64,000 nt of DNA from contig DASYLL010000458.1 in assembly GCA_036009605.1 (NCBI GenBank), positions 8,829 to 72,828 on the forward strand, read 5' to 3'. The position numbers and the translations under genes are program-made. The first letter of the stretch is position 1. Every line of letters begins with the position of its first letter. Source of the DNA: Thermoanaerobaculia bacterium. Lineage in GTDB: Bacteria > Acidobacteriota > Thermoanaerobaculia > Gp7-AA8. The notes under the pieces were generated by a model. That model saw only the letters and a program-made list of their open reading frames with translations, was not told where the DNA came from and ran no database searches. Shown in pieces: positions 456-62,934 of the stretch.

Positions 456-1430
456 ATGCGCAGACAGTTGATGTACACGCTCGCACTCGCCGCCGCATTG
501 TTCGTCGCCAGCACCGCCGGAGCGGCGGACGACGTCATCCGAAAAGGCTTCAATGTCGCGGACGGCGGCACGTTGCGCCTCGATGGTGCAATCGGAGACA
601 TCAAGGTCGTCACGGGCGGCAAAGGTGTGGCGATCGAAGTCATCCGTAAAGCGAGCGGCCGACGCGGCGCAGAGCGTCTGAAAGAGCATCGCATCGAGTT
701 CCAGCAGAACGGCAACGACGTGATCATCGACAGCGACTACGAAGACAACTGGAACGGCTGGCTCAGCTTTTCGAACGACTACGAAGTGCAGTGGAACATC
801 CGCGTCCCGGCGAACTACAACGTCAATGTGAAGACGTCCGGCGGTGGAATCGATCTCGCGGACATCGGCGGCACCGTCGAAGCGCGCACGTCCGGCGGCG
901 GCATCAAGACCGGCCGTCTCGGCGGCAACGCGACGTTGAAAACGTCCGGCGGCTCAATCTCGATCGGCGGCGGAACCAGCGACATCATCGCGCACACCTC
1001 GGGCGGCTCGATCGAGATCGGCGACACGACCGGTCCTGTCGAAGCGAAAACATCCGGCGGTTCGATCACGCTCTCACGCGTTGGCGGCAAGGTCTACGCG
1101 CGCACCTCGGGCGGTGGGATTCGCGTGGAAGACGCGCTTGGCAGCGTGGATGCGTCGACGTCCGGCGGCTCGATCACCGCACGTCTCTCGCGTCAGCCGA
1201 GCGGCGACTCGCGTCTCTCCACCTCGGGCGGCAGCGTCTCCGTGAGCATCGCCACCGGCGTCGATCTCGAGCTCGATGCGAAGGCGAGCGGCGGCGGCGT
1301 GCATTCGGACGTGCCGGTGCTCGTACAGGGAACGCACGACGAAGACTCGCTGCGCGGCCGCATCGGCAACGGAGGTCCGAAGCTGGTGCTCCGGACCTCG
1401 GGTGGCGGAATTCGCGTCAAGTCGCTGTAG
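456..1430 (+). CDS. Secreted beta-repeat protein (DUF4097 / putative adhesin-like) with signal peptide
   Basis: N-terminal signal peptide MRRQLMYTLALAAALFVASTAGA, followed by about ten tandem 'TSGGSI/TSGGGI' beta-strand repeats typical of DUF4097 beta-helix proteins. Confidence 0.6.
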   Translation: MRRQLMYTLALAAALFVASTAGAADDVIRKGFNVADGGTLRLDGAIGDIKVVTGGKGVAIEVIRKASGRRGAERLKEHRIEFQQNGNDVIIDSDYEDNWNGWLSFSNDYEVQWNIRVPANYNVNVKTSGGGIDLADIGGTVEARTSGGGIKTGRLGGNATLKTSGGSISIGGGTSDIIAHTSGGSIEIGDTTGPVEAKTSGGSITLSRVGGKVYARTSGGGIRVEDALGSVDASTSGGSITARLSRQPSGDSRLSTSGGSVSVSIATGVDLELDAKASGGGVHSDVPVLVQGTHDEDSLRGRIGNGGPKLVLRTSGGGIRVKSL

Positions 1431-1440
1431 CGGCTTGACG

Positions 1441-1524
1441 CGTTGTCAGTTCTCGGTTGTCCGTTGTCTGCGGCTTTGTGTGGCCTCGCAGAGAGGCACT
1501 GACAACTGACAACCGAGAACAAAC
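1441..1524. repeat. Palindromic repeat family A copy 1 (arms TTGTCAGTTCTCGGTTGTC... / ...GACAACCGAGAACTGACAA)
   Basis: Inverted repeat with about 28 bp arms made of TTGTCNG-like heptamers around a roughly 30 bp loop. It lies between the convergent 456..1430 gene and icd. The same element recurs at about 9141, 37791, 53146 and 62801. Confidence 0.75.
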
Positions 1525-1546
1525 ATTTAGCCGCGCTGGCGCGCGG

Positions 1547-2779
1547 CTAAATGTTTTCTACGATGTACTTCGCGAACTCGCTGGTCTTGACCTTCGTTGC
1601 GCCTTCCATCTGACGCTCGAGGTCGTACGTGACTTTCTTCTGCTGAATCGTTTTCGCCATGCCGTTCTCGATGGCTTCCGCGGCTTCGTTCCAGTTCATG
1701 TGACGCAGCATCATTACGCCGCTGAGGATCAATGATCCCGGGTTGATGACGTCGAGGCCCGCGTACTTTGGCGCGGTGCCGTGCGTCGCTTCGAAAATCG
1801 CCACTTCGTCGGATTCATTCGAGCCCGGAGCGATGCCGAGGCCGCCGACCTGCGCGGCGAGGGCGTCGGAGATGTAGTCGCCGTTGAGGTTCGTGGTTGC
1901 GATGACCGAGTACTCCTCGGGGCGCAGCAGAACCTGCTGGAACATCGAGTCGGCGATGCGGTCTTTGATCACGATCTTGCCTTCCGGCGCCTTGCCCGAA
2001 ACCTCGGACTCAGGAATCGTCACGTCGCCGAACTCGGACTTCGCGAGCTGGTAGCCCCAGTCCTTGAACGCGCCTTCGGTGAACTTCATGATGTTGCCTT
2101 TGTGCACGAGCGTGACGGAGTTGCGATTCGTGGCGATGGCGTACTCGGTCGCCTTGCGCACCAGGCGCTTCGAGCCGAACTCCGACATCGGCTTGATGCC
2201 GATCGCCGAGTTTTCGCGGATCTTCGTTGAGCGCCGCTCCATCGAGTTGAGAAACTCGATGACCTGATTCGCGAGATCGGATCCGGCCGGCCATTCGATG
2301 CCCGCGTACACGTCTTCCGTGTTCTCGCGGAAGATCGTCATGTTCACTTTCTGCGGTTCTTTGACCGGCGAAGGCACGCCGTCGAAGTAACGCACCGGAC
2401 GCACGCACGCGTAGAGGTCGAGCACCTGACGCAGCGTGACGTTCAGCGAGCGGATGCCGCCGCCGACCGGCGTCGCCAGCGGGCCTTTGATCGACACGCG
2501 ATAGTGCGCGAGATGGTCGAGCGTTTCCTGCGGCAGGTACTCGCCGAAGTTCTGAAACGCCTTCTCGCCGGCGAACACCTCGTGCCAGTAGATCTTGCGA
2601 TTCCCGCCGTAGATCTTCTCGACGGCGCCGTCGATCGCGTACTGCGTCGCGCGCCAGATGTCGGGACCCGTACCGTCGCCTTCGATGTACGGGATGATCG
2701 GGTCATCGGGAACGACGAGCCGGTTGTTCTCGTAGCCGATGCGCGTGCCGGTGGTCGGGTGGGAGATGCGGTCTGCCAT
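1547..2779 (-). CDS. icd: Isocitrate dehydrogenase, NADP-dependent
   Basis: 411 aa from [11 protein letters not shown]..., with the [27 protein letters not shown] motif characteristic of prokaryotic Icd. The ORF-track N-terminal extension is trimmed to the first plausible Met. Confidence 0.9.
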
Positions 2780-2829
2780 GGGCGCGCACTGTAGCGAAAA
2801 GTGGGCGGCCGGGAAAGAGCCTGACGAGG

Positions 2830-2951
2830 GAGTCTCAGAGTCGCAAAGTCTCAGAGTCTCAGAGGGCTTCGCTTCTTGTCGCCTTTGTGCGAGACGCACG
2901 CCGCACGCCGCCTTTCCTCTGAGACTCTGCGACTGTGAGACTCTGAGACTC
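2830..2951. repeat. Palindromic repeat family B copy 1: large hairpin of tandem GAGTCTCAGAG 11-mers
   Basis: Left arm GAGTCTCAGAGTCGCAAAGTCTCAGAGTCTCAGAG, right arm CTCTGAGACTCTGCGACTGTGAGACTCTGAGACTC, about 55 nt loop. It overlaps the 3' end of nfo. Confidence 0.75.
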
Positions 2952-3821
2952 ATTCCCGGCGATGAGCCCCCGCAGAACCGCCAGGTTTCGCTGATCAGAA
3001 ACGGTCTCAATCGTCTTCGGCGTCTCCAGCACTTTCGGGATGCGCGTGAAGCGCGCGTCGTTGAGCAGGAAGCGAAACGGTTCGAGTCCGAGCTCGCCCT
3101 GGCCGATGTGCTCGTGGCGATCGACGCGTGATCCGAGCGGCTTCTTCGAATCATTGAGATGAAACGCGCCCACGTTCTCGATGCCGACGTGTTGTTCGAT
3201 CTCATCGATCGCGCGCTCGTAGCCATCACGCGTGCGCAGGTCGTACCCGGCGGCGAAAACGTGGCAGGTGTCGACGCAGATGCCGAGGCGGCGCGGGTCG
3301 CTGACGCGGGCGATCATTTGTCCCAATTCTTCGAACGTGCAGCCGACGCAGGAGCCCTGTCCTGCCGATGTTTCGAGCAACGTGACGACGCGATGATTCG
3401 GAATCGCGGCGTGGATCGTGTCGAACGAGCGCGCGATCTGATCGATGGCCGCATTCGAGCCCAGGCCCATGTGCGCGCCGGGGTGCAGGACGACGGCGTG
3501 GATGCCGAGGCGCTCAGCGCGGTCGAGCTCGTCGATGAGCGCGGCGATGGACTTGCGGTGGAACTCCGGGTTCGTCGTCGCCAGATTGATGAGATACGAC
3601 GTGTGCGTGAGCAGCGGCTGCACGGTGCGCTTCGCGTTGAACGTCGCGCAGTCCTCATCCGTCAGCTCTTTGCCCTTCCACTGGTTCCCGTTCTTCGCGA
3701 ACAACGCCGCCGCGGACGCATCGATCGCGGCGGCGCGATCGAAGATCGTCGAGAGGCCGCCCTGGGTCGAGATGTGTGCGCCAAGGAGGTCACCGGGTGC
3801 ATCGGGGAAGGCGAACCTCAT
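2859..3821 (-). CDS. nfo: Endonuclease IV (AP endonuclease, deoxyribonuclease IV)
   Basis: From [23 protein letters not shown]... with the conserved HxxYLINL, LHPGAH and HLNDSK metal-binding blocks of Nfo. The last ~30 codons ([14 protein letters not shown]...) are encoded by repeat B1, so the true C-terminus is uncertain. Confidence 0.8.
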
Positions 3822-4816
3822 TGCAGCCTGAAATTCACCGTCACCGTGTAATAGACGTCGATCGGCTCGCCGCGATACGTCGCGGGGCGGAATCTCCATC
3901 GACTCACCGCGCGACGTGCTTCGTCGCCGAGTCCGTACGGCAGGTCTTTGATGATCTCGAGATTGTCGATCGTGCCATCGCGTCTCACGATGCCGCGAAT
4001 CACGACCGGCCCCTGTACGCCCGCTCGACGCGCCGCCGGCGGGTATCGCGGAATCGCGCGATCGAGCTCCTCGGGTTGCGTGCCGCCCGGAGGTACCGCG
4101 CTGTAAACACCGGTGGTGCGTTCGACGGACTCCGGTTGCGGCTCCGGAGTTGGCTCGACCGGCGGCGGTTCCGTGGTCGTTGCCGTGTCTGCGATCGGCG
4201 GCGCCGCCGCGGTCTCGGTCACGTTCGTCGTCGACGGCACTTCCAGCTGATGCGTGCCGGACGAGCTGATGTCGATCGAGTCGACGTCGGCGTACGCGAC
4301 ACCTTTCCCCTGCGCGACCGCATAGAAGTCGTGATCGCGCGTGAACACGGTCACGTCGGCACCCTTCGCGAGAGTGCCGACGAGCGGATAGAAAATCCCC
4401 GGACCGGCGTAGAGGCTCACGCGCTCCGCGACTTCGCCCTTCAACGACGGCAGCGCGCGGATCGCTTCGAATCGTTTGATGCGACGTTGCTGCTCGGACG
4501 TGCGCTCGAGGTTCGCGCGCTCCGCCCATCCCGACAGTTCTTCCGACGTTTGCACACGCACCCACGCGCCGCGATCTTCGAGCATGGTCACACGCTCGCC
4601 GCTGGTCGCCGTGGCGACGACCGGTGCACGCGCGTTCGGCTCCGTGCGCACGCGGATGCGCACCGGCAGCACCGTCAGTGTCTCAGTGATCTGATCGGGC
4701 GCGCGCTCACTCGTGTCCGTGCGCAGCACGATCAACGCGAGCAGCACGAAGAAGATCACCGCCAGCGCGATGACCACGAGCAGACCGCGGCTGTGTCGGG
4801 TTTGGGGATCGGCCAT
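3818..4816 (-). CDS. TonB C-terminal domain protein with two bacterial SH3-like domains and an N-terminal TM anchor
   Basis: N-terminal TM segment LLVVIALAVIFFVLLALIVL, two SH3b-like segments, a Pro/Thr-rich linker and a TonB_C-like end (GVQGPVVIRGIVRRDGTIDNLEIIKD...). It overlaps nfo by 4 bp. Confidence 0.65.
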   Translation of the reverse strand: MADPQTRHSRGLLVVIALAVIFFVLLALIVLRTDTSERAPDQITETLTVLPVRIRVRTEPNARAPVVATATSGERVTMLEDRGAWVRVQTSEELSGWAERANLERTSEQQRRIKRFEAIRALPSLKGEVAERVSLYAGPGIFYPLVGTLAKGADVTVFTRDHDFYAVAQGKGVAYADVDSIDISSSGTHQLEVPSTTNVTETAAAPPIADTATTTEPPPVEPTPEPQPESVERTTGVYSAVPPGGTQPEELDRAIPRYPPAARRAGVQGPVVIRGIVRRDGTIDNLEIIKDLPYGLGDEARRAVSRWRFRPATYRGEPIDVYYTVTVNFRLQ

Positions 4817-9122: not shown

Positions 9123-9140
9123 GCGGCACCTGCGGTGTCG

Positions 9141-9207
9141 CGTTGTCAGTTCTCGGTTGTCGGTTGTCTGTGACGCAGCGCGAAGAGCCGCGGACAACCG
9201 ACAACTG
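9141..9207. repeat. Palindromic repeat family A copy 2 (right arm truncated)
   Basis: TTGTCAGTTCTCGGTTGTCGGTTGTCTG ... CGGACAACCGACAACTG, lying 40 bp upstream of the polA start. Confidence 0.7.
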
Positions 9208-9245
9208 CGGGCACGCGACAAGCGCGCAAATATAATCGCCCCCAG

Positions 9246-11927
9246 ATGCCCGCAAAGAAGCGCCCCTCCCTGTTCATCATCGACGGCTCGAACAACGTCT
9301 ACCGCTCCTACTACGCGATCCGCAATCTGACGAACTCGGACGGCATGGCCACGAACGCGGTCTACGGCTTCGTCACCACGCTGCGCAAGCTGCTCAAGGA
9401 TCACGAGCCGGACTGCATCGCCGTCGCGTTCGATGAGGGAAAGGAAACCGCGCGCACCGCTCAGTTCGAGGACTACAAGAAAGATCGCAAGCCGATGCCG
9501 GACGATCTGGTCGTGCAGATCCCGCTCGTCTACGAAGTGCTCGAAGCCTTCCGCATCCCCGTGATCCGCTCCGTCGAATGGGAAGCAGACGACTTCATCG
9601 GATCGCTCGCCTGCAGCGCGCGCGACCGCGGCTACGACGTGGTCATCGCCACCAGCGACAAAGACTTCTTCCAGCTCGTCGGCAACGGCATCAAGCTCTA
9701 CCACACGGGTCGCGAGGTGCTGTACGACGAGAAGGGCGTCGAGGATGCGTTCGGCCTGCCGCCGGAGAAAGTCGTCGACGTGATGGCGATCTGGGGCGAC
9801 GCCATCGACAACATTCCCGGCGTCCCCGGCATCGGCGAGAAGGGCGCGAAGGGGCTGATCCAGCAGTTCGGATCGCTCGACGGCGTCTACGCAGGCCTCG
9901 ATCAGATCAAGAAGGCCGCGCAGCGGAAAACGCTCGAAGAGAACCGCGACAAGGCATACATGTCGCGCGATCTCGCGCAAATCAAATGCGATCTCGATCT
10001 CGAAACGGATTTCGAAGCACTGAAGCGCACGGAGCCCGATCGCGCGAAGCTGCACGAGATCTTCTCGAAGCTCGAGTTCGCGTCGCTGATGCAGGAGTTT
10101 CTGCCCGAGGCGCCGGCGGTGCCGAAGGACTACCGCGTTGCGGAATCCGCGGAGGACATCCGCGACTACACCACCGGCCACCACACCGCCGACAACGCCC
10201 CCATCGGAATCTGGCTCGAGCCCAAGACGATCGACGGCTTCGACGCACCGATGGCCGCATCGATCTCGGTCCGTCCCTCCGACTCGCTCCTCATTCCGCT
10301 CGTCTCCGATCTCGGCTCGTCATCCGAAATGACGGACGCACTGCGCGAGTTGCTCGCATCGCCGCGCGAGTTCGTCACGTATGACGCGAAAGCGCAATCG
10401 CGCCGTCTGCGTGCAGCCGGTCTGCCGGTGCCGTCGCAATGGACCGACGTCATGCTGATGTCGTACGTGATCAACCCCGGCCTGCCGAGTCACGCGCTCG
10501 GCAACATCGTGCGCGACCGTCTCAAGCAGGACGTGCAGGTGCGCAAAGACGTCGCGAAGACGGCCCCGCTCTTCGCCCTCGATCACGAAATCGGCAGCAC
10601 CGCCCTCGGCGCCTACCAGCAATACCTCGGCGAAAAATCGGACGTCACGATCGCGCTGCGCACGATGCTCGAGCCCGAGTTGCGGCGCGACGACGCGCTC
10701 GCCGACATCTACACGCGCATCGAGATGCCGCTCTTCCCGGTGCTGAGCAGCATGGAAGAACGCGGCATCCGCATCGATACCGCGCTGCTGCGCGTGATGT
10801 CGAAGTCGATGGGCGAGCAGCTCGCGGAGCTCGAGACGCGCATCTACGCGGAAGCCGGCACGGAGTTCAACATCAACTCGCCGATGCAGCTCGGGCACAT
10901 CCTGTTCGAGAAGCTCAACTATCCCGTCCTCAAAAAAACGAAGACGACGAAGAACTACTCGACCAACGTCGAAGTGCTCCAGGAGCTCGCGACGCACGGA
11001 TTCGCGGTGCCGCAGCTCATCCTCCAGCATCGCGAGCTGCACAAGCTCAAAGGCACGTATGTCGATGCGTTGCCGCAGCTCGTTGCTTCGGACGGACGCG
11101 TACACACAACGTTCAATCAGGCGGTCGCGGCGACCGGACGCCTCTCATCGTCCGATCCGAACCTGCAGAACATTCCGATCCGCACCCAGCTCGGACGCGA
11201 GATCCGCAAAGCGTTCGTTGCCGATGATGGATCGGTGCTGATCTCGGCCGACTACTCGCAAGTCGAGCTTCGCGTGCTCGCGCACATCTCCGGCGATGAG
11301 TCATTGATCGAGACCTTCGCGCGCGGCGACGACATTCATCGCGCGACCGCGTCGAAGATGTTCAGCATTCCGCCGGAGGAGCTGACGGCGGAGCAGCGGC
11401 GCGCGGCCAAGGTCATCAACTTCGGTGTGCTGTACGGGATGTCGTCGTTCCGTCTGGCGAATGAGCTCGACATCTCGACCGGGCAGGCGAAGGACTGGAT
11501 CGACGCGTACTTCTCGCGCTATCCGAAGATCCAGGAGTACCTCGATCGCACGCTCGTCGAAGCGCGCAACACCGGCAAAGTGACGACGCTGTTCGGCCGC
11601 GTGCGCTACATCCCCGAGATCCACAATCGCTCGTTCACCGTGCGCGGCAACGCCGAGCGCATGGCGACGAACGCGCCGATTCAGGGCACGGCCGCGGACA
11701 TTCTGAAGATGGCGATGATCGCGCTCGAGCGGAAGCTCAACGCGCATTCGTCCGGCGCGCGGATGTTGCTGACGGTGCACGATGAAATCGTGATCGAGGC
11801 GCCGGAGACGAGCGCGGCGGACGTGGCCGGGATTGTGAAAGACACGATGGAGAACGTCTTCCCGCTCGCGGTGCCGCTGGCTGTCGATGCGCACTACGGG
11901 CCGAGATGGTTCGACGCAAAAGAGTGA
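9246..11927 (+). CDS. polA: DNA polymerase I
   Basis: 893 aa with an N-terminal 5'-3' exonuclease domain and a Klenow-like polymerase domain carrying motif A DYSQVELRVLAHISGDE, motif B RRAAKVINFGVLYG and motif C VHDE. Confidence 0.95.
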   Translation: MPAKKRPSLFIIDGSNNVYRSYYAIRNLTNSDGMATNAVYGFVTTLRKLLKDHEPDCIAVAFDEGKETARTAQFEDYKKDRKPMPDDLVVQIPLVYEVLEAFRIPVIRSVEWEADDFIGSLACSARDRGYDVVIATSDKDFFQLVGNGIKLYHTGREVLYDEKGVEDAFGLPPEKVVDVMAIWGDAIDNIPGVPGIGEKGAKGLIQQFGSLDGVYAGLDQIKKAAQRKTLEENRDKAYMSRDLAQIKCDLDLETDFEALKRTEPDRAKLHEIFSKLEFASLMQEFLPEAPAVPKDYRVAESAEDIRDYTTGHHTADNAPIGIWLEPKTIDGFDAPMAASISVRPSDSLLIPLVSDLGSSSEMTDALRELLASPREFVTYDAKAQSRRLRAAGLPVPSQWTDVMLMSYVINPGLPSHALGNIVRDRLKQDVQVRKDVAKTAPLFALDHEIGSTALGAYQQYLGEKSDVTIALRTMLEPELRRDDALADIYTRIEMPLFPVLSSMEERGIRIDTALLRVMSKSMGEQLAELETRIYAEAGTEFNINSPMQLGHILFEKLNYPVLKKTKTTKNYSTNVEVLQELATHGFAVPQLILQHRELHKLKGTYVDALPQLVASDGRVHTTFNQAVAATGRLSSSDPNLQNIPIRTQLGREIRKAFVADDGSVLISADYSQVELRVLAHISGDESLIETFARGDDIHRATASKMFSIPPEELTAEQRRAAKVINFGVLYGMSSFRLANELDISTGQAKDWIDAYFSRYPKIQEYLDRTLVEARNTGKVTTLFGRVRYIPEIHNRSFTVRGNAERMATNAPIQGTAADILKMAMIALERKLNAHSSGARMLLTVHDEIVIEAPETSAADVAGIVKDTMENVFPLAVPLAVDAHYGPRWFDAKE

Positions 11928-11945
11928 GCCGTCTAAGAGAGCGCA

Positions 11946-12053
11946 CCCCTCATCCGCCTTTGGCACCTTCTCCCCTCTGGGAGGGGAGAAGGCCGAGAGT
12001 TGACAGGCCTTCGCCCCGCGTGAGCGGGGAGAAGGTGCCGAAGGCCGATGAGT
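11946..12053. repeat. Palindromic repeat family C copy 1 (nested palindrome around CTTCTCCCCTC..GAGGGGAGAAGG)
   Basis: CCCCTCATCCGCCTTTGGCACCTTCTCCCCTCTGGGAGGGGAGAAGGCCGAGAG plus an inverted second half. A half-copy recurs at 27853. Confidence 0.7.
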
Positions 12054-12862
12054 GGTCTCTCGTTCGCAAAAGTCTGCTCCTGCTGATCGCGATATCCCTC
12101 GCGTGCAAGCCCACTCCTTCCCCCTCGACGACGAAGAAAGCCGCCGCCGGGCCGAACGTGCGCGCGACGGTGATCACGATCCGCACGACCGAAGAACCGG
12201 AGAAGCGCGCCCTTACTCAGACGATCGCCATCGCCGGCGACAAAGCACGCGACACCAGCGAACGCGATGTCTGGCGTCTGTTCGATACGAAAGCGCGAAC
12301 GGTCACGTTCGTCGACGAGATCAATCGTACGGTTCGCACGGAGCCGCTGCAGAAACTGATCGACGAGCGTCGCGCAGAAAACTCGAAGACGCTACCGCCG
12401 CACTATCCGCGCGCGCGCCTGCTCCGCCCCGGAACAACGAAGACGATCCTCGGCGCCCGGGCCGAGTTGTTCGTGATCGAGAGCGGCGCGTACAAGCGCG
12501 AGCTGTGGATCGCGGAGCACCCTGCGATTCCGAGCGGGCTGTTTCCGATGATGCACGCGAGCGAGCCCGCGACGTTGCCGCTCGCACCGATCATGCGCGC
12601 GGTGGACGAAGTGCTCATCGCGGCACGCGGGTTTCCGCTGATCGATCACGCGGAGGTGCCGTTCGCGAAGAGCACGCTCGTGATCGATCGCGTCGTCGTC
12701 GAAGTCGGGCCGAAGGATGTGCCGGCGTCGCTGTTCGAAGTGCCGACTTACTCCAGGACCGCGACGCCCCAGTTGTCCGGATCGAACGTGTACTCGCGAT
12801 CCGTGAAGCCACGTGCGAGCTGGGCTTCCGCACAATCATCCTCGACACTGCCGGGCCAGTAG
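12035..12862 (+). CDS. Hypothetical lipoprotein
   Basis: Start proposed at the in-frame GTG at 12035 inside repeat C1, giving MPKADEWSLVRKSLLLLIAISLAC with lipobox LAC. The ORF-track start at 11906 would overlap polA and read through the repeat. The low-complexity C-terminus overlaps the convergent gene. Confidence 0.45.
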   Translation: MPKADEWSLVRKSLLLLIAISLACKPTPSPSTTKKAAAGPNVRATVITIRTTEEPEKRALTQTIAIAGDKARDTSERDVWRLFDTKARTVTFVDEINRTVRTEPLQKLIDERRAENSKTLPPHYPRARLLRPGTTKTILGARAELFVIESGAYKRELWIAEHPAIPSGLFPMMHASEPATLPLAPIMRAVDEVLIAARGFPLIDHAEVPFAKSTLVIDRVVVEVGPKDVPASLFEVPTYSRTATPQLSGSNVYSRSVKPRASWASAQSSSTLPGQ

Positions 12863-13430: not shown

Positions 13431-15308
13431 TCAGAGTACCAAGCGGGTATCACCGATTCGTTTCGTGGCGCCGTCCTGATCGAAAAACTCCAGTAACGGT
13501 ATCGCCACCTTGCGGGAGATCCCGAAGAGGTCTTTGAACTGCCCAACGTCGATCGTCTGCCCTTTCTTCTCGGCGAGCTTCGCTTTTGCGGCCGCGACCG
13601 TATCGCGATGCAGGTAGATGCCGTCGGCGAGACGGATCAGCGCGCCCTGTTTGATGAGGTACGCGATCATCCCTTCGATCATTTTCGGCTTCTGCGGAAT
13701 GGCTCTGATGAGCTGGGAAGTCGCCGGCGTCTGCAGTCCCGCCTCAGCAAATTTCAGTTCGATCTCGCGCGCCAGCTGCCCCTCGGTACCGCCGAGCGTC
13801 TTCGAGCGCCCGGGGATGTCGAGCGCGTCGCCCTGCACGACCGCGATCCGTTCTTTCGCCAGATCATTGAGGAGGAAGTTCACCGGCGCGCCTTCAGGGA
13901 TGAGCTTCTGCACGAATTCGCCTTTCGGAACGTTGGTCGCCATCCTGTTCGCTTTGAAGTAGCCGTCGAGCAGCTCCATACTGCGGCGGCGGAAGTCGGC
14001 GAGCACGTCGCTGTGCAGGAACGTGGAGCCCGTACGGGCGACGTTCGGGACGTTCTTCAGTTCTTTCGTCAGTGTCTCGATGCGAATGCCGGTGCGTGTC
14101 TGGATTTCTTCGATCGTGATGCCGTGCAGTCCCTGCAGTTTCGCGGTCAGCTCGACGCGCTCGGGCAGCGTCCCGTTCGCGAGCGTTTCGAGAATCTCGC
14201 GACGCGTGCCGCGACTGAGCTTGCCGAGGTGCGGATCGAGGATCACGCCCCCGCCGATGGTCGTGGCGGGTGAGTAGCGGCGGATCACGAAACGATCGCC
14301 GGCGGCCGCGACGACCGGCGCTTCGAGCCGCACCTGCGCGAACGCGCTCCCGCCGCCTTTGATCTCGCCGCCGGTTTGATCGACGAAACGGATCGTGCCG
14401 AGGAGCTCGGCGGAGAGATGGTGGAAGCGGATGCGCGTCTGCTCTTTGAGAGGCTTCGCGTCCGGCAACAGCTCGAGCTTCACGGTGATGATCTGCGACG
14501 GACGCAGCGTGTTCGGATGCAGCACCTGTTGTCCGCGATGCAGCTCGTCGAGTGGAACGTCGGCGAGATTCATCGACGTGCGCTCGCCTGCCGAGGCTTC
14601 CTCGCGCGGTTCGTTGTGGACCTGGACGCCGCGCGCGCGACTCTGTTTCTCGCCAGGCAGCACTTCCACGTCATCATCGACGCGAACGTGGCCCGAGTAC
14701 GTCGTGCCCGTGATCACCGAGCCGAAACCTTTCATCGTGAACACGCGATCGATCGGCAGACGGAACACGCGTTTGGTCGCATCGCGATCATCGACGCTCG
14801 CGACCGATTGCAGAATCGCGGCGCGCAAGTCATCGAGTCCCGCGCCCGTCGTGCTGCTCACCGGCACGATCGGTTTGCCTTCGAGGAAACTGCCGGCGAC
14901 GAGCTCTTCGACTTCGAGTCGCACGAGCTCGAGGATGTCGCGTTCGACGAGATCGCTCTTCGTCAGCGCGACGAGTCCCGTGGGGATGCCGAGGAGCTTG
15001 CAGATCGCGAAGTGTTCGCGCGTTTGCGGCTTGATCGATTCATCCGCGGCAATGACAAGTAGCGCGGAATCGATCCCACCGATGCCGGCCAGCATGTTCT
15101 TCACGAAACGCTCGTGGCCGGGAACGTCGACGAAACCGATCTGATAGTCGTCAGTGAACCAGCTCGCGAATCCGAGGTCGATGGTGATGCCGCGGCGCTT
15201 CTCTTCGGGGAGGCGGTCGGTGTCGATGCCGGTGAGTGCGCGGACGAGGGACGTCTTGCCGTGATCGATGTGGCCGGCCGTGCCGATCACGCGTTTCTTG
15301 CGGGTCAT
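13431..15308 (-). CDS. selB: Selenocysteine-specific translation elongation factor
   Basis: 625 aa with an EF-Tu-like GTPase N-terminus ([22 protein letters not shown]) and the long C-terminal extension typical of SelB. Confidence 0.8.
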
Positions 15309-15331
15309 TCGCGCGAATCGTACCCTTCATG

Positions 15332-15416
15332 GAGAGTCTTAGAGGTTTAGAGTCGTAGAGTCTTAGAGGAGAAGCCTGTCCAACCGACCCTCTACGACTC
15401 TAAGACTCTAAGGCTC
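15332..15416. repeat. Palindromic repeat family B copy 2 (tandem TAGAGTC/GAGTCTTAGAG units)
   Basis: GAGAGTCTTAGAGGTTTAGAGTCGTAGAGTCTTAGAGG ... CCTCTACGACTCTAAGACTCTAAGGCTC, filling the divergent selB/hydrolase intergenic region. It is related to copy B1. Confidence 0.7.
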
Positions 15417-16250
15417 ATGCATATTCGCGAAGTAACCCTCCAAACGTCCGACGGCCTCACCCTCCGAGGCACGCACTACGACGCGTCCTCCGATTCCGTC
15501 CTCCTGATCGCCTCCGCCCTCGGCGTGAAGCGCCGTTACTACGACGCGTTCGCGCAGCGAATCGCGGAGAGCGGACGCAGCGTTGTCACGTTCGACTATC
15601 GCGGCATCGGCGACTCGCGTCCGAAATCACTGCGCAGCTTCGACGGCACGATGGAGGAGTGGGGGCGGCTCGACATCACGGCGGCGATCGAATGGGTCTC
15701 GTCCGAACTGCGGCCGAAGACGCTCGCGTATGTCGGGCACAGTTGCGGCGGTCAACTCCTCGGCCTCGCGCCGAATGCACCGCGCGTCGATCAGATCATC
15801 TTCACGTCCGCGCAGAGCGGCTATTGGCGTCACTGGCCGGGCTCGAGCAAATATCGGCTCGGCGCGTTATGGGTGACGATGCCGCTCGTTGCCTCCGTCA
15901 TCGGATACTTTCCTTCGAAAGTTCTCGGCCTCGGCAGCGAAGATCTGCCGCGCCGCGTCGCCGTGGAATGGGCGCGCTGGGGTCGCCATCCCGAATATAT
16001 CTTCGGCTACCACGATCCCGCTCCGTACGCGCGCATCACCGCCCCGCTTCTCGGATGGAGTTTCGTCGACGACACCTATGCGCCGAAAGCCGCGGTCGAC
16101 GCGCTGCTCGCTCACTACAGCAGCGCGGACATCACGCGCCGCCACACGGACGCGCCCGGCATCGGACATTTCGGTTTCTTCCGCCGCGGCAAAGGCGAAC
16201 GTCTCTGGGACGAAGCCGTGACGTGGCTCGCCGCGCGAACGGTGCGATAA
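15417..16250 (+). CDS. Alpha/beta-fold hydrolase
   Basis: GHSCGG nucleophile elbow; 277 aa. Confidence 0.75.
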   Translation: MHIREVTLQTSDGLTLRGTHYDASSDSVLLIASALGVKRRYYDAFAQRIAESGRSVVTFDYRGIGDSRPKSLRSFDGTMEEWGRLDITAAIEWVSSELRPKTLAYVGHSCGGQLLGLAPNAPRVDQIIFTSAQSGYWRHWPGSSKYRLGALWVTMPLVASVIGYFPSKVLGLGSEDLPRRVAVEWARWGRHPEYIFGYHDPAPYARITAPLLGWSFVDDTYAPKAAVDALLAHYSSADITRRHTDAPGIGHFGFFRRGKGERLWDEAVTWLAARTVR

Positions 16251-18491: not shown

Positions 18492-19481
18492 GTGTTCCTG
18501 AGTTATGATCCGCGCCGCTTGACACGCCCGAATCCCCTCCCTGTCGACTCCGTTCTCGAGCTCATCGGCAACACACCGATGGTCCGTCTCCGCAAGATCG
18601 GCGGCGGTGATGACGCCGAGATCTTCGTGAAGATGGAGCTCCTCAATCCCGGCTTCTCCGTCAAAGACCGCATCGGCATCGGCATGATCGAACGCGCCGA
18701 GCGCGATGGTCATCTGAAGCCCGGCGGAACGATCATCGAGCCGACTGCGGGCAACACCGGCGTCGGACTCGCGCTCGCCGGCGTGCAGAAGGGCTATCGC
18801 GTCATTCTCTGCGTCCCCGAGAATTTCTCGAAAGAGAAACGCGAAGTGATGAAGGCCCTCGGCGGCGAAGTGATCCTCACGCCGAAAGACGGCGGGATGA
18901 AAGCCGCGATCGCACTCGCGGAAAAACTCGCAACGGAGATCGAAGGCGCGTACGTTCCGCAGCAGTTCGCGAATCCGTACAACACCGAATCGCACTACGA
19001 GACCACCGGCGCCGAAATCTGGGAACAGATGGAAGGCCGCGTCGATGGCTGGGTTGCGGGCGCGGGCACCGGCGGCACGTTCACGGGCGTCGCCAAGTAC
19101 CTCCGCGAACGGAACCCCGACGTGCAGTGTTTCATCGTCGAGCCGCAGGGCTCGATTCTGAAAGGCGGCGAAGCGGGACCGCACGAAGTGGAAGGCATCG
19201 GCGCGTCGTCGTTCATCCCGCCCGTGCTCGACATGAGCCTCGCCACGGACGTCATCAAAGTCGATGACGATCCCGCCTTCGACATGGTCGCGCGACTCGC
19301 CGTCGAAGAAGGAATCCTCGGCGCATCGTCCGCCGGTGCAAACGTGACCGCTGCGCTCGAAGTGGCAAAACGACTCGGCCGCGGCAAACGCGTCGTGACG
19401 CTGATCCCCGACGCGAGTGAGCGCTATATGTCGAAGGGCATCTACGAGCGCTGGCGGAAGCAGGAAGATGACGCGAATTGA
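18492..19481 (+). CDS. cysK: Cysteine synthase (O-acetylserine sulfhydrylase)
   Basis: N-terminal LIGNTPMVRL motif; 329 aa. The exact start is uncertain. Confidence 0.85.
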   Translation: MFLSYDPRRLTRPNPLPVDSVLELIGNTPMVRLRKIGGGDDAEIFVKMELLNPGFSVKDRIGIGMIERAERDGHLKPGGTIIEPTAGNTGVGLALAGVQKGYRVILCVPENFSKEKREVMKALGGEVILTPKDGGMKAAIALAEKLATEIEGAYVPQQFANPYNTESHYETTGAEIWEQMEGRVDGWVAGAGTGGTFTGVAKYLRERNPDVQCFIVEPQGSILKGGEAGPHEVEGIGASSFIPPVLDMSLATDVIKVDDDPAFDMVARLAVEEGILGASSAGANVTAALEVAKRLGRGKRVVTLIPDASERYMSKGIYERWRKQEDDAN

Positions 19482-19564
19482 AAATTGAAGATTGAAAAAT
19501 CGCAGCGCCGGTCTCGCGAGACACGCTCCGATCTTTGCATTTTCAATTTTCAATTTTCAATTCC
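19476..19564 (+). terminator. AT-rich palindromic terminator/attenuator-like element (TTGAAAA x3 ... GGTCTCGCGAGAC ... TTTTCAA x3)
   Basis: A perfect 12 bp GC palindrome GTCTCGCGAGAC is flanked by inverted tandem heptamers. It begins inside the cysK stop codon and ends 20 bp before the next start. It is strikingly AT-rich for this genome. Confidence 0.5.
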
Positions 19565-24964: not shown

Positions 24965-25059
24965 GTTTGGAGTGCGGCAGCCGCAGCTGCCGCCTTTGTA
25001 TGCGACAGCGCTGCGCACGAACATACGAAAGCGGCAGCTGCGGCTACCGCACTCCAAAC
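24965..25059. repeat. Palindromic repeat family D copy 1 (GGAGTGCGGCAGCCGCAGCTGCCGC arms, nested inner palindrome)
   Basis: GTTTGGAGTGCGGCAGCCGCAGCTGCCGC ... GCGGCAGCTGCGGCTACCGCACTCCAAAC, immediately after the ppdK stop. Confidence 0.7.
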
Positions 25060-36359: not shown

Positions 36360-37790
<1,431 letters not shown>

Positions 37791-37792
<2 letters not shown>

Positions 37793-37863
37793 GTTGTCGG
37801 TTCTCGGTTGTCCGTGACGTTTCGCCCGGGCCGTGAATCACAGACAACCGACAACTGATAACC
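37791..37863. repeat. Palindromic repeat family A copy 3, filling the sufB-sufC intergenic region
   Basis: GAGTTGTCGGTTCTCGGTTGTCCG ... CAGACAACCGACAACTGATAACC. It starts at the sufB stop codon and ends at the sufC RBS. Confidence 0.75.
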
Positions 37864-49540: not shown

Positions 49541-49637
49541 GTTGCTGGTTGCTGGTTGCTGGTTCAAGGTACTTCGTCGCCAGAGCGTGACGCACTCGCG
49601 ACAAGGCACAACGAACCAGTAACCAGCAACCAGCAAC
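49541..49637. repeat. Palindrome of tandem GTTGCTG heptamers (GTTGCTGGTTGCTGGTTGCTGGTTC ... GAACCAGTAACCAGCAACCAGCAAC)
   Basis: 25 bp arms and a 47 bp loop, between the MlaD-like gene end and the ddl start. It is probably a terminator or processing hairpin. Confidence 0.6.
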
Positions 49638-53145: not shown

Positions 53146-53226
53146 CTTTGTCGGTTGTCAGTTTCGGTTGTATCGGCCGTGTCGCGAGAACCCACAGACA
53201 ACCGACAACCGACGCCTGACAACCGC
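53146..53226. repeat. Palindromic repeat family A copy 4
   Basis: CTTTGTCGGTTGTCAGTTTCGGTTGTA ... CAGACAACCGACAACCGACGCCTGACAACCG, in the divergent galU/BNR intergenic region. Confidence 0.7.
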
Positions 53227-62791: not shown

Positions 62792-62800
62792 CTCGCCGCG

Positions 62801-62889
62801 CGTTGTCAGTTGTTGGTTCTCGGTTGTCTGCGACCTGGCCTGGCTTCGCAGTGACTCTTCAGACAACCGACAACCGAGAACTGACAACG
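62801..62889. repeat. Palindromic repeat family A copy 5 (most complete copy)
   Basis: CGTTGTCAGTTGTTGGTTCTCGGTTGTCTG ... CAGACAACCGACAACCGAGAACTGACAACG, starting 10 bp after the mglA-like stop. Confidence 0.75.
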
Positions 62890-62934
62890 CCGCGCCGAAG
62901 GCGTGCCCATGTCTGCCGGGATAGACTCCGCGCC

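Follow-up and report, generated by a model that had tools for sequence, protein, structure and literature searches.

The REP and REPIN elements of Proteobacteria are abundant intergenic palindromes that lie at gene 3′ ends or between cistrons, have conserved arms, and are gained and lost among relatives. REPs are reportedly thought to stabilise upstream mRNA, and those near stop codons are said to affect translation. The nearest precedent for the hairpins described here is found in Xanthomonas, in which GGGAATC heptamer simple-sequence repeats occur as inverted pairs (Rehm et al., 2015; PMC4692102). Heptamers also occur as the TAACTGA direct repeats of Beggiatoaceae and as the STRR heptamers of cyanobacteria (PMC4679880); in both, one unit is repeated in direct orientation ahead of start codons, and no palindrome is formed. 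Insertions of MITEs and other repeats, in turn, have been described as extending the 3′ ends of genes (Delihas, 2011; PMC3184786, section 15).

In the window, by which is meant the whole 64,000-nucleotide stretch of DNA that was analysed, a 122-base palindrome lies between nfo and icd. It shares with the Xanthomonas pairs short, convergent, intergenic arrays that are capable of forming a stem-loop, at a position conserved between species and with varying copy number. The palindrome has the form of such an inverted simple-sequence-repeat pair, its sole departure being that half of the copy is translated. Xanthomonas uses a single G-rich 7-nt unit that has been studied for G-quadruplex formation, whereas approximately 39 units are found here, mostly without G-tracts and with periods of 7 and 8; the unit at nfo, GAGTCTCA, and its complement, TGAGACTC, contain no GGG run. 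The present arrays differ further in lying tight against stop codons, sometimes within coding sequence, and in that nearly every window array of at least three copies belongs to an inverted pair. The intergenic placement, arm conservation, and turnover listed above for REP and REPIN elements recur in these hairpins; however, the hairpins have no GTAG/CGTC tag and no single family consensus, and their arms are internally tandem-repetitive, which sets them apart from the REP/REPIN family. As in the cases of Delihas (2011), a small inverted-repeat element is fused in frame to an open reading frame and provides new C-terminal residues and a stop codon. No target-site duplication or partner transposase is evident, and the element may have grown in place. 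With the heptamers of Beggiatoaceae and cyanobacteria it has in common short tandem units in spacers by gene boundaries, sometimes over upstream stop codons.

The nfo-icd hairpin and the end of Nfo

On the minus strand, the genes run from a tonB-like gene (3818-4816) through nfo (2859-3821, 320 aa) to icd (1547-2779), which encodes isocitrate dehydrogenase (Pfam Iso_dh, E = 4e-91) and lies downstream of the hairpin. An exact-match lookup of the window Icd returned no record. An inverted-repeat search finds the hairpin at 2830-2951, as the sequence-only reading had placed it, with two 36-nt arms complementary at 33 of 36 positions (92%) and a non-repetitive 50-nt loop (2866-2915). The left arm (2830-2865), distal in the nfo sense, holds 4.4 copies of the complementary unit TGAGACTC, and the right arm (2916-2951), proximal in the nfo sense, holds 4.4 copies of the sense unit (Tandem Repeats Finder, period 8, score 56). 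The arms had been described as tandem 11-mers; their true period is 8 (GAGTCTCA and its complement CTCTGAGA), and each supposed 11-mer consists of one unit and three bases of the next. Matches to GAGTCTCAGAG with at most one mismatch number nine in the window against 1.6 expected, a count reached by none of 100 shuffles. The nfo-sense RNA of the hairpin folds at -77 kcal/mol (z = -6.67), and the DNA-strand fold has z = -5.58; the hairpin is far beyond chance. Its arms begin GAGTC, and no direct repeat flanks 2830-2951 in the window sequence. Rfam gives no match at the gathering score across the whole window and none at E ≤ 1 in 2700-3100. An assembly artefact is excluded, since independent assemblies, made in different projects with different assemblers and including megabase-scale contigs, also contain the hairpin.

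The protein matches Pfam PF01261 (AP_endonuc_2; E = 7.4e-49, residues 27-270) and E. coli Nfo (PDB 1QTW_A; E = 4.3e-60, residues 13-268), which identifies it as an endonuclease IV. Its metal-ligand motifs (H..YLINL, HPG.H, LE..AGQG, DTCH, HLND, DRH, and ETP) are identical to those of E. coli Nfo and invariant in a 15-sequence alignment. In this alignment the conserved protein stops at L286, and nothing is alignable beyond it. E. coli Nfo (285 aa) aligns until query residue 268, equivalent to its chain residue 263, so that an ancestral C-terminus would be expected at about residue 290, where the repeat starts. Pfam, 1QTW, and the alignment delimit a core of residues 1-290 (2952-3821, minus strand), and the ancestral C-terminus probably lay near residue 288-290.

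Tail codons 291-320 (2862-2951, minus strand), which are missing from hairpin-less orthologs, can be mapped onto the hairpin codon by codon. The right arm contributes 12 codons (E291-R302) and the loop 17 (K303-A319); L320 and the TGA stop (2859-2861, minus strand) are provided by the first left-arm unit, the stop lying inside CTCTGAGA. This map bears out the proposal that the nfo frame runs through the right arm and that the hairpin gives the last 30 codons and the stop. The further idea that the tail is a direct translation of the repeat holds for 12 of the 30 residues, which come from repeat units, and fails for the 17 that come from the non-repetitive loop. Since three units of 8 nt amount to 24 nt, each of the three frames of the proximal arm yields one and the same peptide, with a period of 8 residues. 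In the nfo direction this arm has no stop codon in any frame, and the distal arm has one TGA per intact unit, with TGA in two of the three frames.

The junction, its arms, and the icd promoter among relatives

The best protein matches of Nfo (77-93% identity) are all from metagenome-assembled genomes of Thermoanaerobaculia (Acidobacteriota). The closest relative (P0001) is 93% identical and 297 aa long, with a tail ending ...DTSLRVVKS. Tails of at least 15 residues beyond LRxL are present in 104 of 119 close homologs, with 26% K+R and 5% D+E, and only 10 of the 119 end within nine residues.

The nfo-icd junction was read in 47 species-representative loci and 63 metagenome loci, and it occurs in seven states. 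The hairpin is intact, with the same 8-mer unit, in the window and in L002, L004, L014, L015, L023, L029, L030, L044, L049, L053, L054, L062/L097, and L065. The hairpin is shared at this position by at least 14 related Thermoanaerobaculia junction sequences, drawn from metagenome contigs as well as species genomes, and these orthologs have 20-30 extra residues that read as 8-mer translation (ESQSRRVSKSQR...ETLRL before the stop). Hairpin remnants are found in L001, L017, and L022. The element is decayed in L003, L007, L010, L027, and L043, in which R-rich tails keep one or two units (e.g., ...RRVARPRAARIATA before the stop). In the short state, seen in L005, L008, L018, L019, L026, L032, L037, and others, Nfo ends 0-5 residues past LRxL. 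In a fifth state (L011, L012, L031, L061, and L083; for example L012:6858-6948) the junction has no hairpin and nfo runs without a stop into icd, overlapping its start out of frame by approximately 25 codons. A single locus carries an in-frame nfo-hairpin-icd fusion ORF through the promoter region (L004:6001-8241), which may be a sequencing error, since the contig name gives only approximately 1.9x coverage. Finally, L034, L068, L076, and L087 have a different, non-periodic hairpin (CTGTCATCCTGAGCC...) that supplies the nfo stop.

The ortholog comparison proposed along with the sequence-only reading can thus be answered. Hairpin-less relatives, among them also L013 and the proteins P0028, P0041, and P0120, end 0-5 residues after LRxL, and the tail is for this reason repeat-derived rather than ancestral coding sequence. 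An ancestral tail would have been indicated by an equal extension in orthologs that had never carried the repeat, and none of the orthologs compared shows this. The R-rich tails of L007, L010, L027, and L043 are decayed copies, since they retain unit remnants and branch inside the hairpin-bearing group. In a neighbour-joining tree of Nfo and Icd, a deep-branching group lacks the 8-mer hairpin, and hairpin-bearing, decayed, and secondarily short junctions fall into one ingroup that includes the window. The hairpin has been lost in L005, L008, L012, L031, L032, and L072. The simplest reading of this pattern would be one old gain followed by repeated decay and loss. A repeat element has indeed remodelled the C-terminus and stop codon of nfo, as had been proposed, but the event is ancient and shared by many species rather than a recent insertion. 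The relatives with an "empty" site comprise deep outgroups and cases of secondary deletion in which arm remnants persist (e.g., L032); the element at nfo may either have transposed in or have grown in place by unit duplication.

Other palindromes occur at nfo loci as well. A family of non-periodic hairpins of approximately 170-210 nt, CTGTCATCCTGAGCCGCC...GGCGGCTCAGGATGACAG, gives the last nfo codons and the stop at L034:6862-7028 and is found elsewhere in L017, L023, L024, L027, and L029; its insertion is a second, independent gene-end remodelling at the nfo-icd site. At L035:6858-6970, icd is inverted relative to nfo, and the two convergent genes are separated by a hairpin built on another 8-nt unit (AGCTGTTC). 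Two distant nfo homologs, with 45-48% identity, carry heptamer-armed hairpins directly upstream (L101:1858-2001, AAAGTAC x6; L104:917-997, GGCCCCA-like), so that the tandem-armed architecture may extend beyond the Thermoanaerobaculia group studied.

Since unit number and register vary between species, the arms of 17 junctions were paired along the best gapless diagonal, with positions indexed by unit phase, and each proximal arm was compared with its own distal arm and with those of other species. Unit positions 2, 3, 5, 7, and 8 (xAGxCxCA) are almost invariant. Paired changes are seen at position 1 (G:C 24, A:T 18, C:G 4) and position 4 (T:A 40, G:C 7), and position 6 is often mismatched (G-A, 16). 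In lineages with altered units both arms have changed jointly, as in L053, which has AGGC for AGTC; L029 and L065 also differ. For L053, L029, L054, and L044, the proximal arm finds its best or near-best partner in its own distal arm. Between species, arm identity is 0.79 against 0.45 for shuffled arms; when these species are compared with the window, four-fold sites of icd and nfo give an identity of 0.57-0.70 (approximately 0.63), with 0.40 at saturation. Orthologous loops, which are 10-50 nt long, have an identity of 0.51 against 0.49 when shuffled. These values indicate that the arms are constrained and the loop is not, leaving the loop-encoded half of the Nfo tail free to vary. The distal arm is non-coding, yet it is as conserved as the coding arm. 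Selection on the sense-strand RNA was considered and rejected, as mismatches on the sense strand of tandem-context hairpins comprise 18 G:T and 15 A:C, with no excess of G:U. Such strand symmetry is unlike selection on a single RNA strand and points toward maintenance at the DNA level.

The promoter of icd adjoins the element. A -10-like box, TACAGT (2788-2793, minus strand), lies 8 nt before the icd ATG and 36 nt downstream of the hairpin in the nfo/icd sense. A terminator/promoter scan of 1300-3100 found no canonical site, and the promoter is recognised only through comparison of the junctions. TAnAnT is present 5-11 nt before the alignment-anchored icd start in 46 of 68 distinct junctions, and at 7-11 nt in 39 junctions whose anchored start reads ATG. 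The box is usually TAGAGT, TACAGT, or TAAAGT, and TTGnnn is almost always found 16-18 nt further upstream, which gives a conserved promoter in the clade of TTGnnn, 16-18 nt, TAnAGT, 7-10 nt, and ATG. TANNNT near the start is a signature of leaderless bacterial genes (PMC3160421), and the icd promoter is predicted to be of the leaderless type.

The hexamer at the -35 position in the window is a poor TTTCCC. In L008, which lacks the hairpin, nfo ends with a TAG that belongs to the -10 box, and its last codons contain the -35 hexamer, TTGCGG, an arrangement that places the hairpin between the ancestral -35 and -10. In eight relatives (L002, L015, L017, L022, L030, L044, L053, and L054) the distal arm adjoins the -10 region and the -35 hexamer is an arm unit (TTGAGA, TTGCGA, or TTGAGC). 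Five of these eight have the TT variant only in the -35 unit, the neighbouring units reading CTCTGAGA, and decayed copies retain exactly the -35 unit (TATTGCGACGG). The arm unit at -35 in eight relatives suggests that the element was co-opted as icd promoter sequence, or perhaps derived from promoter sequence. In hairpin-less relatives, the unit AGAGTCGC equals the icd -10 box and the next three bases, and its complement contains a -35-like TTGCGAC.

Further signals and repeats are found around icd and elsewhere in the window. A perfect TATAAT stands 9 nt ahead of the ATG of the gene that begins at 9246. At 1521-1556, a perfect 16-bp palindrome (AAACATTTAGCCGCGC tggc GCGCGGCTAAATGTTT) lies over the icd stop and is followed by a T-rich run in the icd sense; this element, next to the tandem-armed hairpin at 1441-1525, resembles an ordinary intrinsic terminator. 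Spacers downstream of icd in L010, L018, L023, and L032 contain large, species-specific direct tandem arrays without an inverted partner (for example, GTTCCTCGGA x6 in L032, a 15-mer x4 in L018, and GATCCCGGATCATTT... in L010), and intergenic repeat turnover in the clade appears to be very fast.

Tandem-armed hairpins beyond nfo

Nine hairpins with tandem arms of 7- or 8-nt units are present in the window. The GTTGTCN family accounts for five (1441-1525, 9136-9210, 37789-37862, 53148-53225, and 62800-62890) and the GAGTCTCA family for two (2830-2951 and 15333-15416), and the others are built on AATTGAA (19475-19563) and GTTGCTG (49541-49637). The loops of the seven heptamer-armed hairpins are unrelated even inside families, and most of these hairpins lie 0-10 nt from a stop codon. 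A gene for a PLP enzyme ends at 19481, with its TGA inside the first AATTGAA unit.

The second hairpin of the 8-mer family, at 15333-15416 (units GAGTCTTA/GAGTCGTA; -46 kcal/mol, z = -5.67), lies between the divergent genes selB and a hydrolase. It had been said to abut both start codons; it does abut the hydrolase ATG at 15417, but the selB start at 15308 is 24 nt away. The hairpin almost fills the 108-nt spacer (15309-15416). Its units read TAGAGTC, which matches the icd -10 box of relatives, and selB has TACGAT 8 nt before its ATG; as predicted from the sequence, the selB and hydrolase promoters must both overlap the hairpin.

Across 686 kb of non-redundant Thermoanaerobaculia sequence, 139 strong hairpins were found against one in shuffled sequence. 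Tandem-unit arms are present in 56 of the 139, with approximately 39 different units and periods of 7 (31 hairpins), 8 (23, of which approximately 13 are orthologs of the nfo site), 6 (one), and 10 (one); a few period-9 cases fall just under the threshold and outside the count of 56. Both flanks could be classified for 45 hairpins, of which 37 lie between tandem genes, five between convergent genes, and three between divergent genes, so that a gene 3′ end adjoins 42 of them on at least one side. Measured from the first base of the hairpin, upstream stop codons range in position from -41 to +77 nt, mostly within a few bases; apart from nfo, nine genes, the PLP-enzyme gene at 19481 among them, end inside a hairpin, with overlaps of 1-36 nt. 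In the literature no description was found of tandem-armed palindromes with many unit families in Acidobacteriota, nor a paper joining Thermoanaerobaculia with repeats and hairpins; the studies found of heptamers and stem-loops concern only Xanthomonas/Nostoc and Beggiatoaceae.

Two general roles for the units were considered and rejected. All three frames are closed in 17 of 52 gene-facing orientations, compared with 12.8 from shuffles, which is not significant for a role as all-frame stops, and the window hairpin closes only two frames in its distal arm. As generic -35-like sequences, approximately nine of the 39 units contain TTG by hand count, which is about the chance level, and orientation is inconsistent between families; the TTG/-35 idea is kept only for the icd promoter, where spacing is conserved.

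Long non-periodic hairpins at 11945-12056 and 24965-25059 belong to dispersed families that also occur in relatives, with GGGGAGAAGGTGCCGAAGGC... in L001 and TTTGGAGTGCGGC.GCC... in L015 and L032; in many loci the latter follows immediately on the icd stop. Both look REP-like or terminator-like.

Origin, function, and significance

The reading of the nfo hairpin that we favour, at a probability of roughly 55%, is that it belongs, as a single copy, to a class of intergenic palindromes found throughout the lineage, that the Nfo tail is its by-product, that it serves as a REP-like 3′ stem-loop or insulator before the icd promoter, and that its arms are kept complementary at the DNA level. The element would have been gained, or amplified in place, in the ancestor of a large soil group of Thermoanaerobaculia, between the -10 box of the leaderless-type icd promoter and the stop codon at which nfo originally ended. 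The nfo stop would have been displaced by this event, with ribosomes reading the stop-free proximal arm and the loop as far as the first in-frame TGA of the distal arm. As a REP-type 3′ stem-loop, the palindrome may act on the tonB-like/nfo transcript by marking or protecting its 3′ end and by insulating it from the icd promoter just downstream, and in several relatives a distal-arm unit may double as the icd -35 hexamer. Complementarity could be held by slippage among units together with templated correction from arm to arm, a strand-symmetric process. The 3′ stem-loop or insulator role is favoured because of the placement at gene 3′ ends, the stability of the fold, and the conservation of the arms. 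Against it, a role at 3′ ends would be meaningless between divergent gene starts, which is where three of the 45 classified hairpins, 15333-15416 among them, are situated, and the lack of a G:U excess argues against selection on the sense-strand RNA fold alone. Ordinary terminators with GC stems and T-runs exist in the clade, such as window 1521-1556 and the GGAGTGCGGCGGC...GCCGCCGCTTT elements after icd, so that tandem-armed hairpins are not needed as sole terminators. Translation up to the distal-arm stop would, moreover, keep the hairpin melted on translated mRNAs, which also counts against this role. In the window copy, the 50-nt loop, the missing U-tract, and the negative terminator scan weigh in the same direction, as do the 36 nt between arm and -10 box and the poor TTTCCC hexamer.

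A serious rival, though we consider it less probable, is that the structure is a selfish or purely mutational palindromic simple-sequence repeat without function. It would arise by slippage of heptamers or octamers together with fold-back, templated correction, or a transposase, and be tolerated in short spacers, with both the tail and the -35 overlap accidental. The sharing of one architecture by approximately 39 unrelated units suggests a generic process rather than specific binding factors, and the strand-symmetric mismatches, the frequent loss and decay at nfo, and the fast-changing tandem and inverted repeats that fill the spacers downstream of icd fit the same explanation. It also draws on the statement that heptamer repeats are over-represented in bacteria, possibly through polymerase slippage, as attributed to Mrazek (2007) where PMC4679880 and PMC4692102 cite that work. 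However, orthologous arms exceed synonymous-site conservation in at least 14 junctions, with the loops randomised. Placement is non-random, being near stop codons and depleted between divergent starts, and in five species the TT variant is specific to the unit at the -35 position.

The two other readings are both improbable. The sequence-only reading had suggested that the hairpin may be the terminator of nfo, and a very stable stem directly at the gene 3′ end would agree with a canonical Rho-independent terminator, as would relatives in which the distal arm adjoins a T-rich tract before the -10 box (ACTTTTCGTC), giving a stem followed by four U. The window copy, however, combines a 36-pair stem with a 50-nt loop, and its distal arm is followed by CCCTCGTCAGG instead of a U-tract; the stop codon falls within that arm, hairpins of this architecture are also found between divergent starts, and the scan of 1300-3100 returned no intrinsic terminator. 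Of still lower probability is selection on the protein, by which a basic, disordered C-terminal tail would improve DNA binding by Nfo and the DNA repeat would be its footprint. This agrees with the prevalence of long, basic tails among close homologs (104 of 119) and with the retention of R-rich tails in lineages with decayed hairpins. It is opposed by the equal conservation of the non-coding distal arm, by the presence of the same unit family in the non-coding divergent spacer at 15333-15416, by the variation of the loop-encoded parts of the tail in sequence and length, and by the return of several lineages to a short C-terminus. Out-of-frame read-through into icd is, in addition, equally basic, as for any translation of GC-rich non-coding sequence, and the similarity of the tail peptides follows from DNA similarity, since repetition of an 8-nt unit yields one periodic peptide whichever frame is read. 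On the favoured explanation of a palindrome maintained at the DNA level, the basic 30-residue tail would be a by-product of the DNA element and no selected protein domain.

The nfo extension represents no new kind of gene; it is a by-product, old and shared among relatives, of a type of hairpin that is scattered throughout these genomes. Its consequence for the single gene is small, as the catalytic core of Nfo remains intact and gains a disordered basic tail. The nfo-icd junction offers a clean, phylogenetically resolved case of gain, decay, loss, read-through, and in-frame nfo-icd fusion. As a case of gene-end remodelling it is ordinary, and the new part is the hairpin class together with the promoter co-option. 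The hairpin architecture is apparently undescribed and is very common in an abundant, uncultured soil lineage. Tentatively, and at less than even odds, soil Thermoanaerobaculia and possibly other Acidobacteriota may carry an undescribed, genome-wide class of tandem-armed palindromes of 60-150 nt, built of 3-5 units of 7-8 nt whose length is almost never a multiple of three, with dozens of unit families near stop codons. In this proposal the arms would be maintained at the DNA level in a strand-symmetric manner, the elements would have been co-opted repeatedly for C-terminal and stop codons and for -35 hexamers, and some would perhaps have been born from the amplification of local promoters. 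Such tandem-armed hairpins will mislead gene callers, through wrong stops, spurious tails, and overlapping genes, as well as predictors of terminators and promoters. A single element that ends one gene and would give the next gene its -35 box represents a compact co-option of a non-coding repeat.
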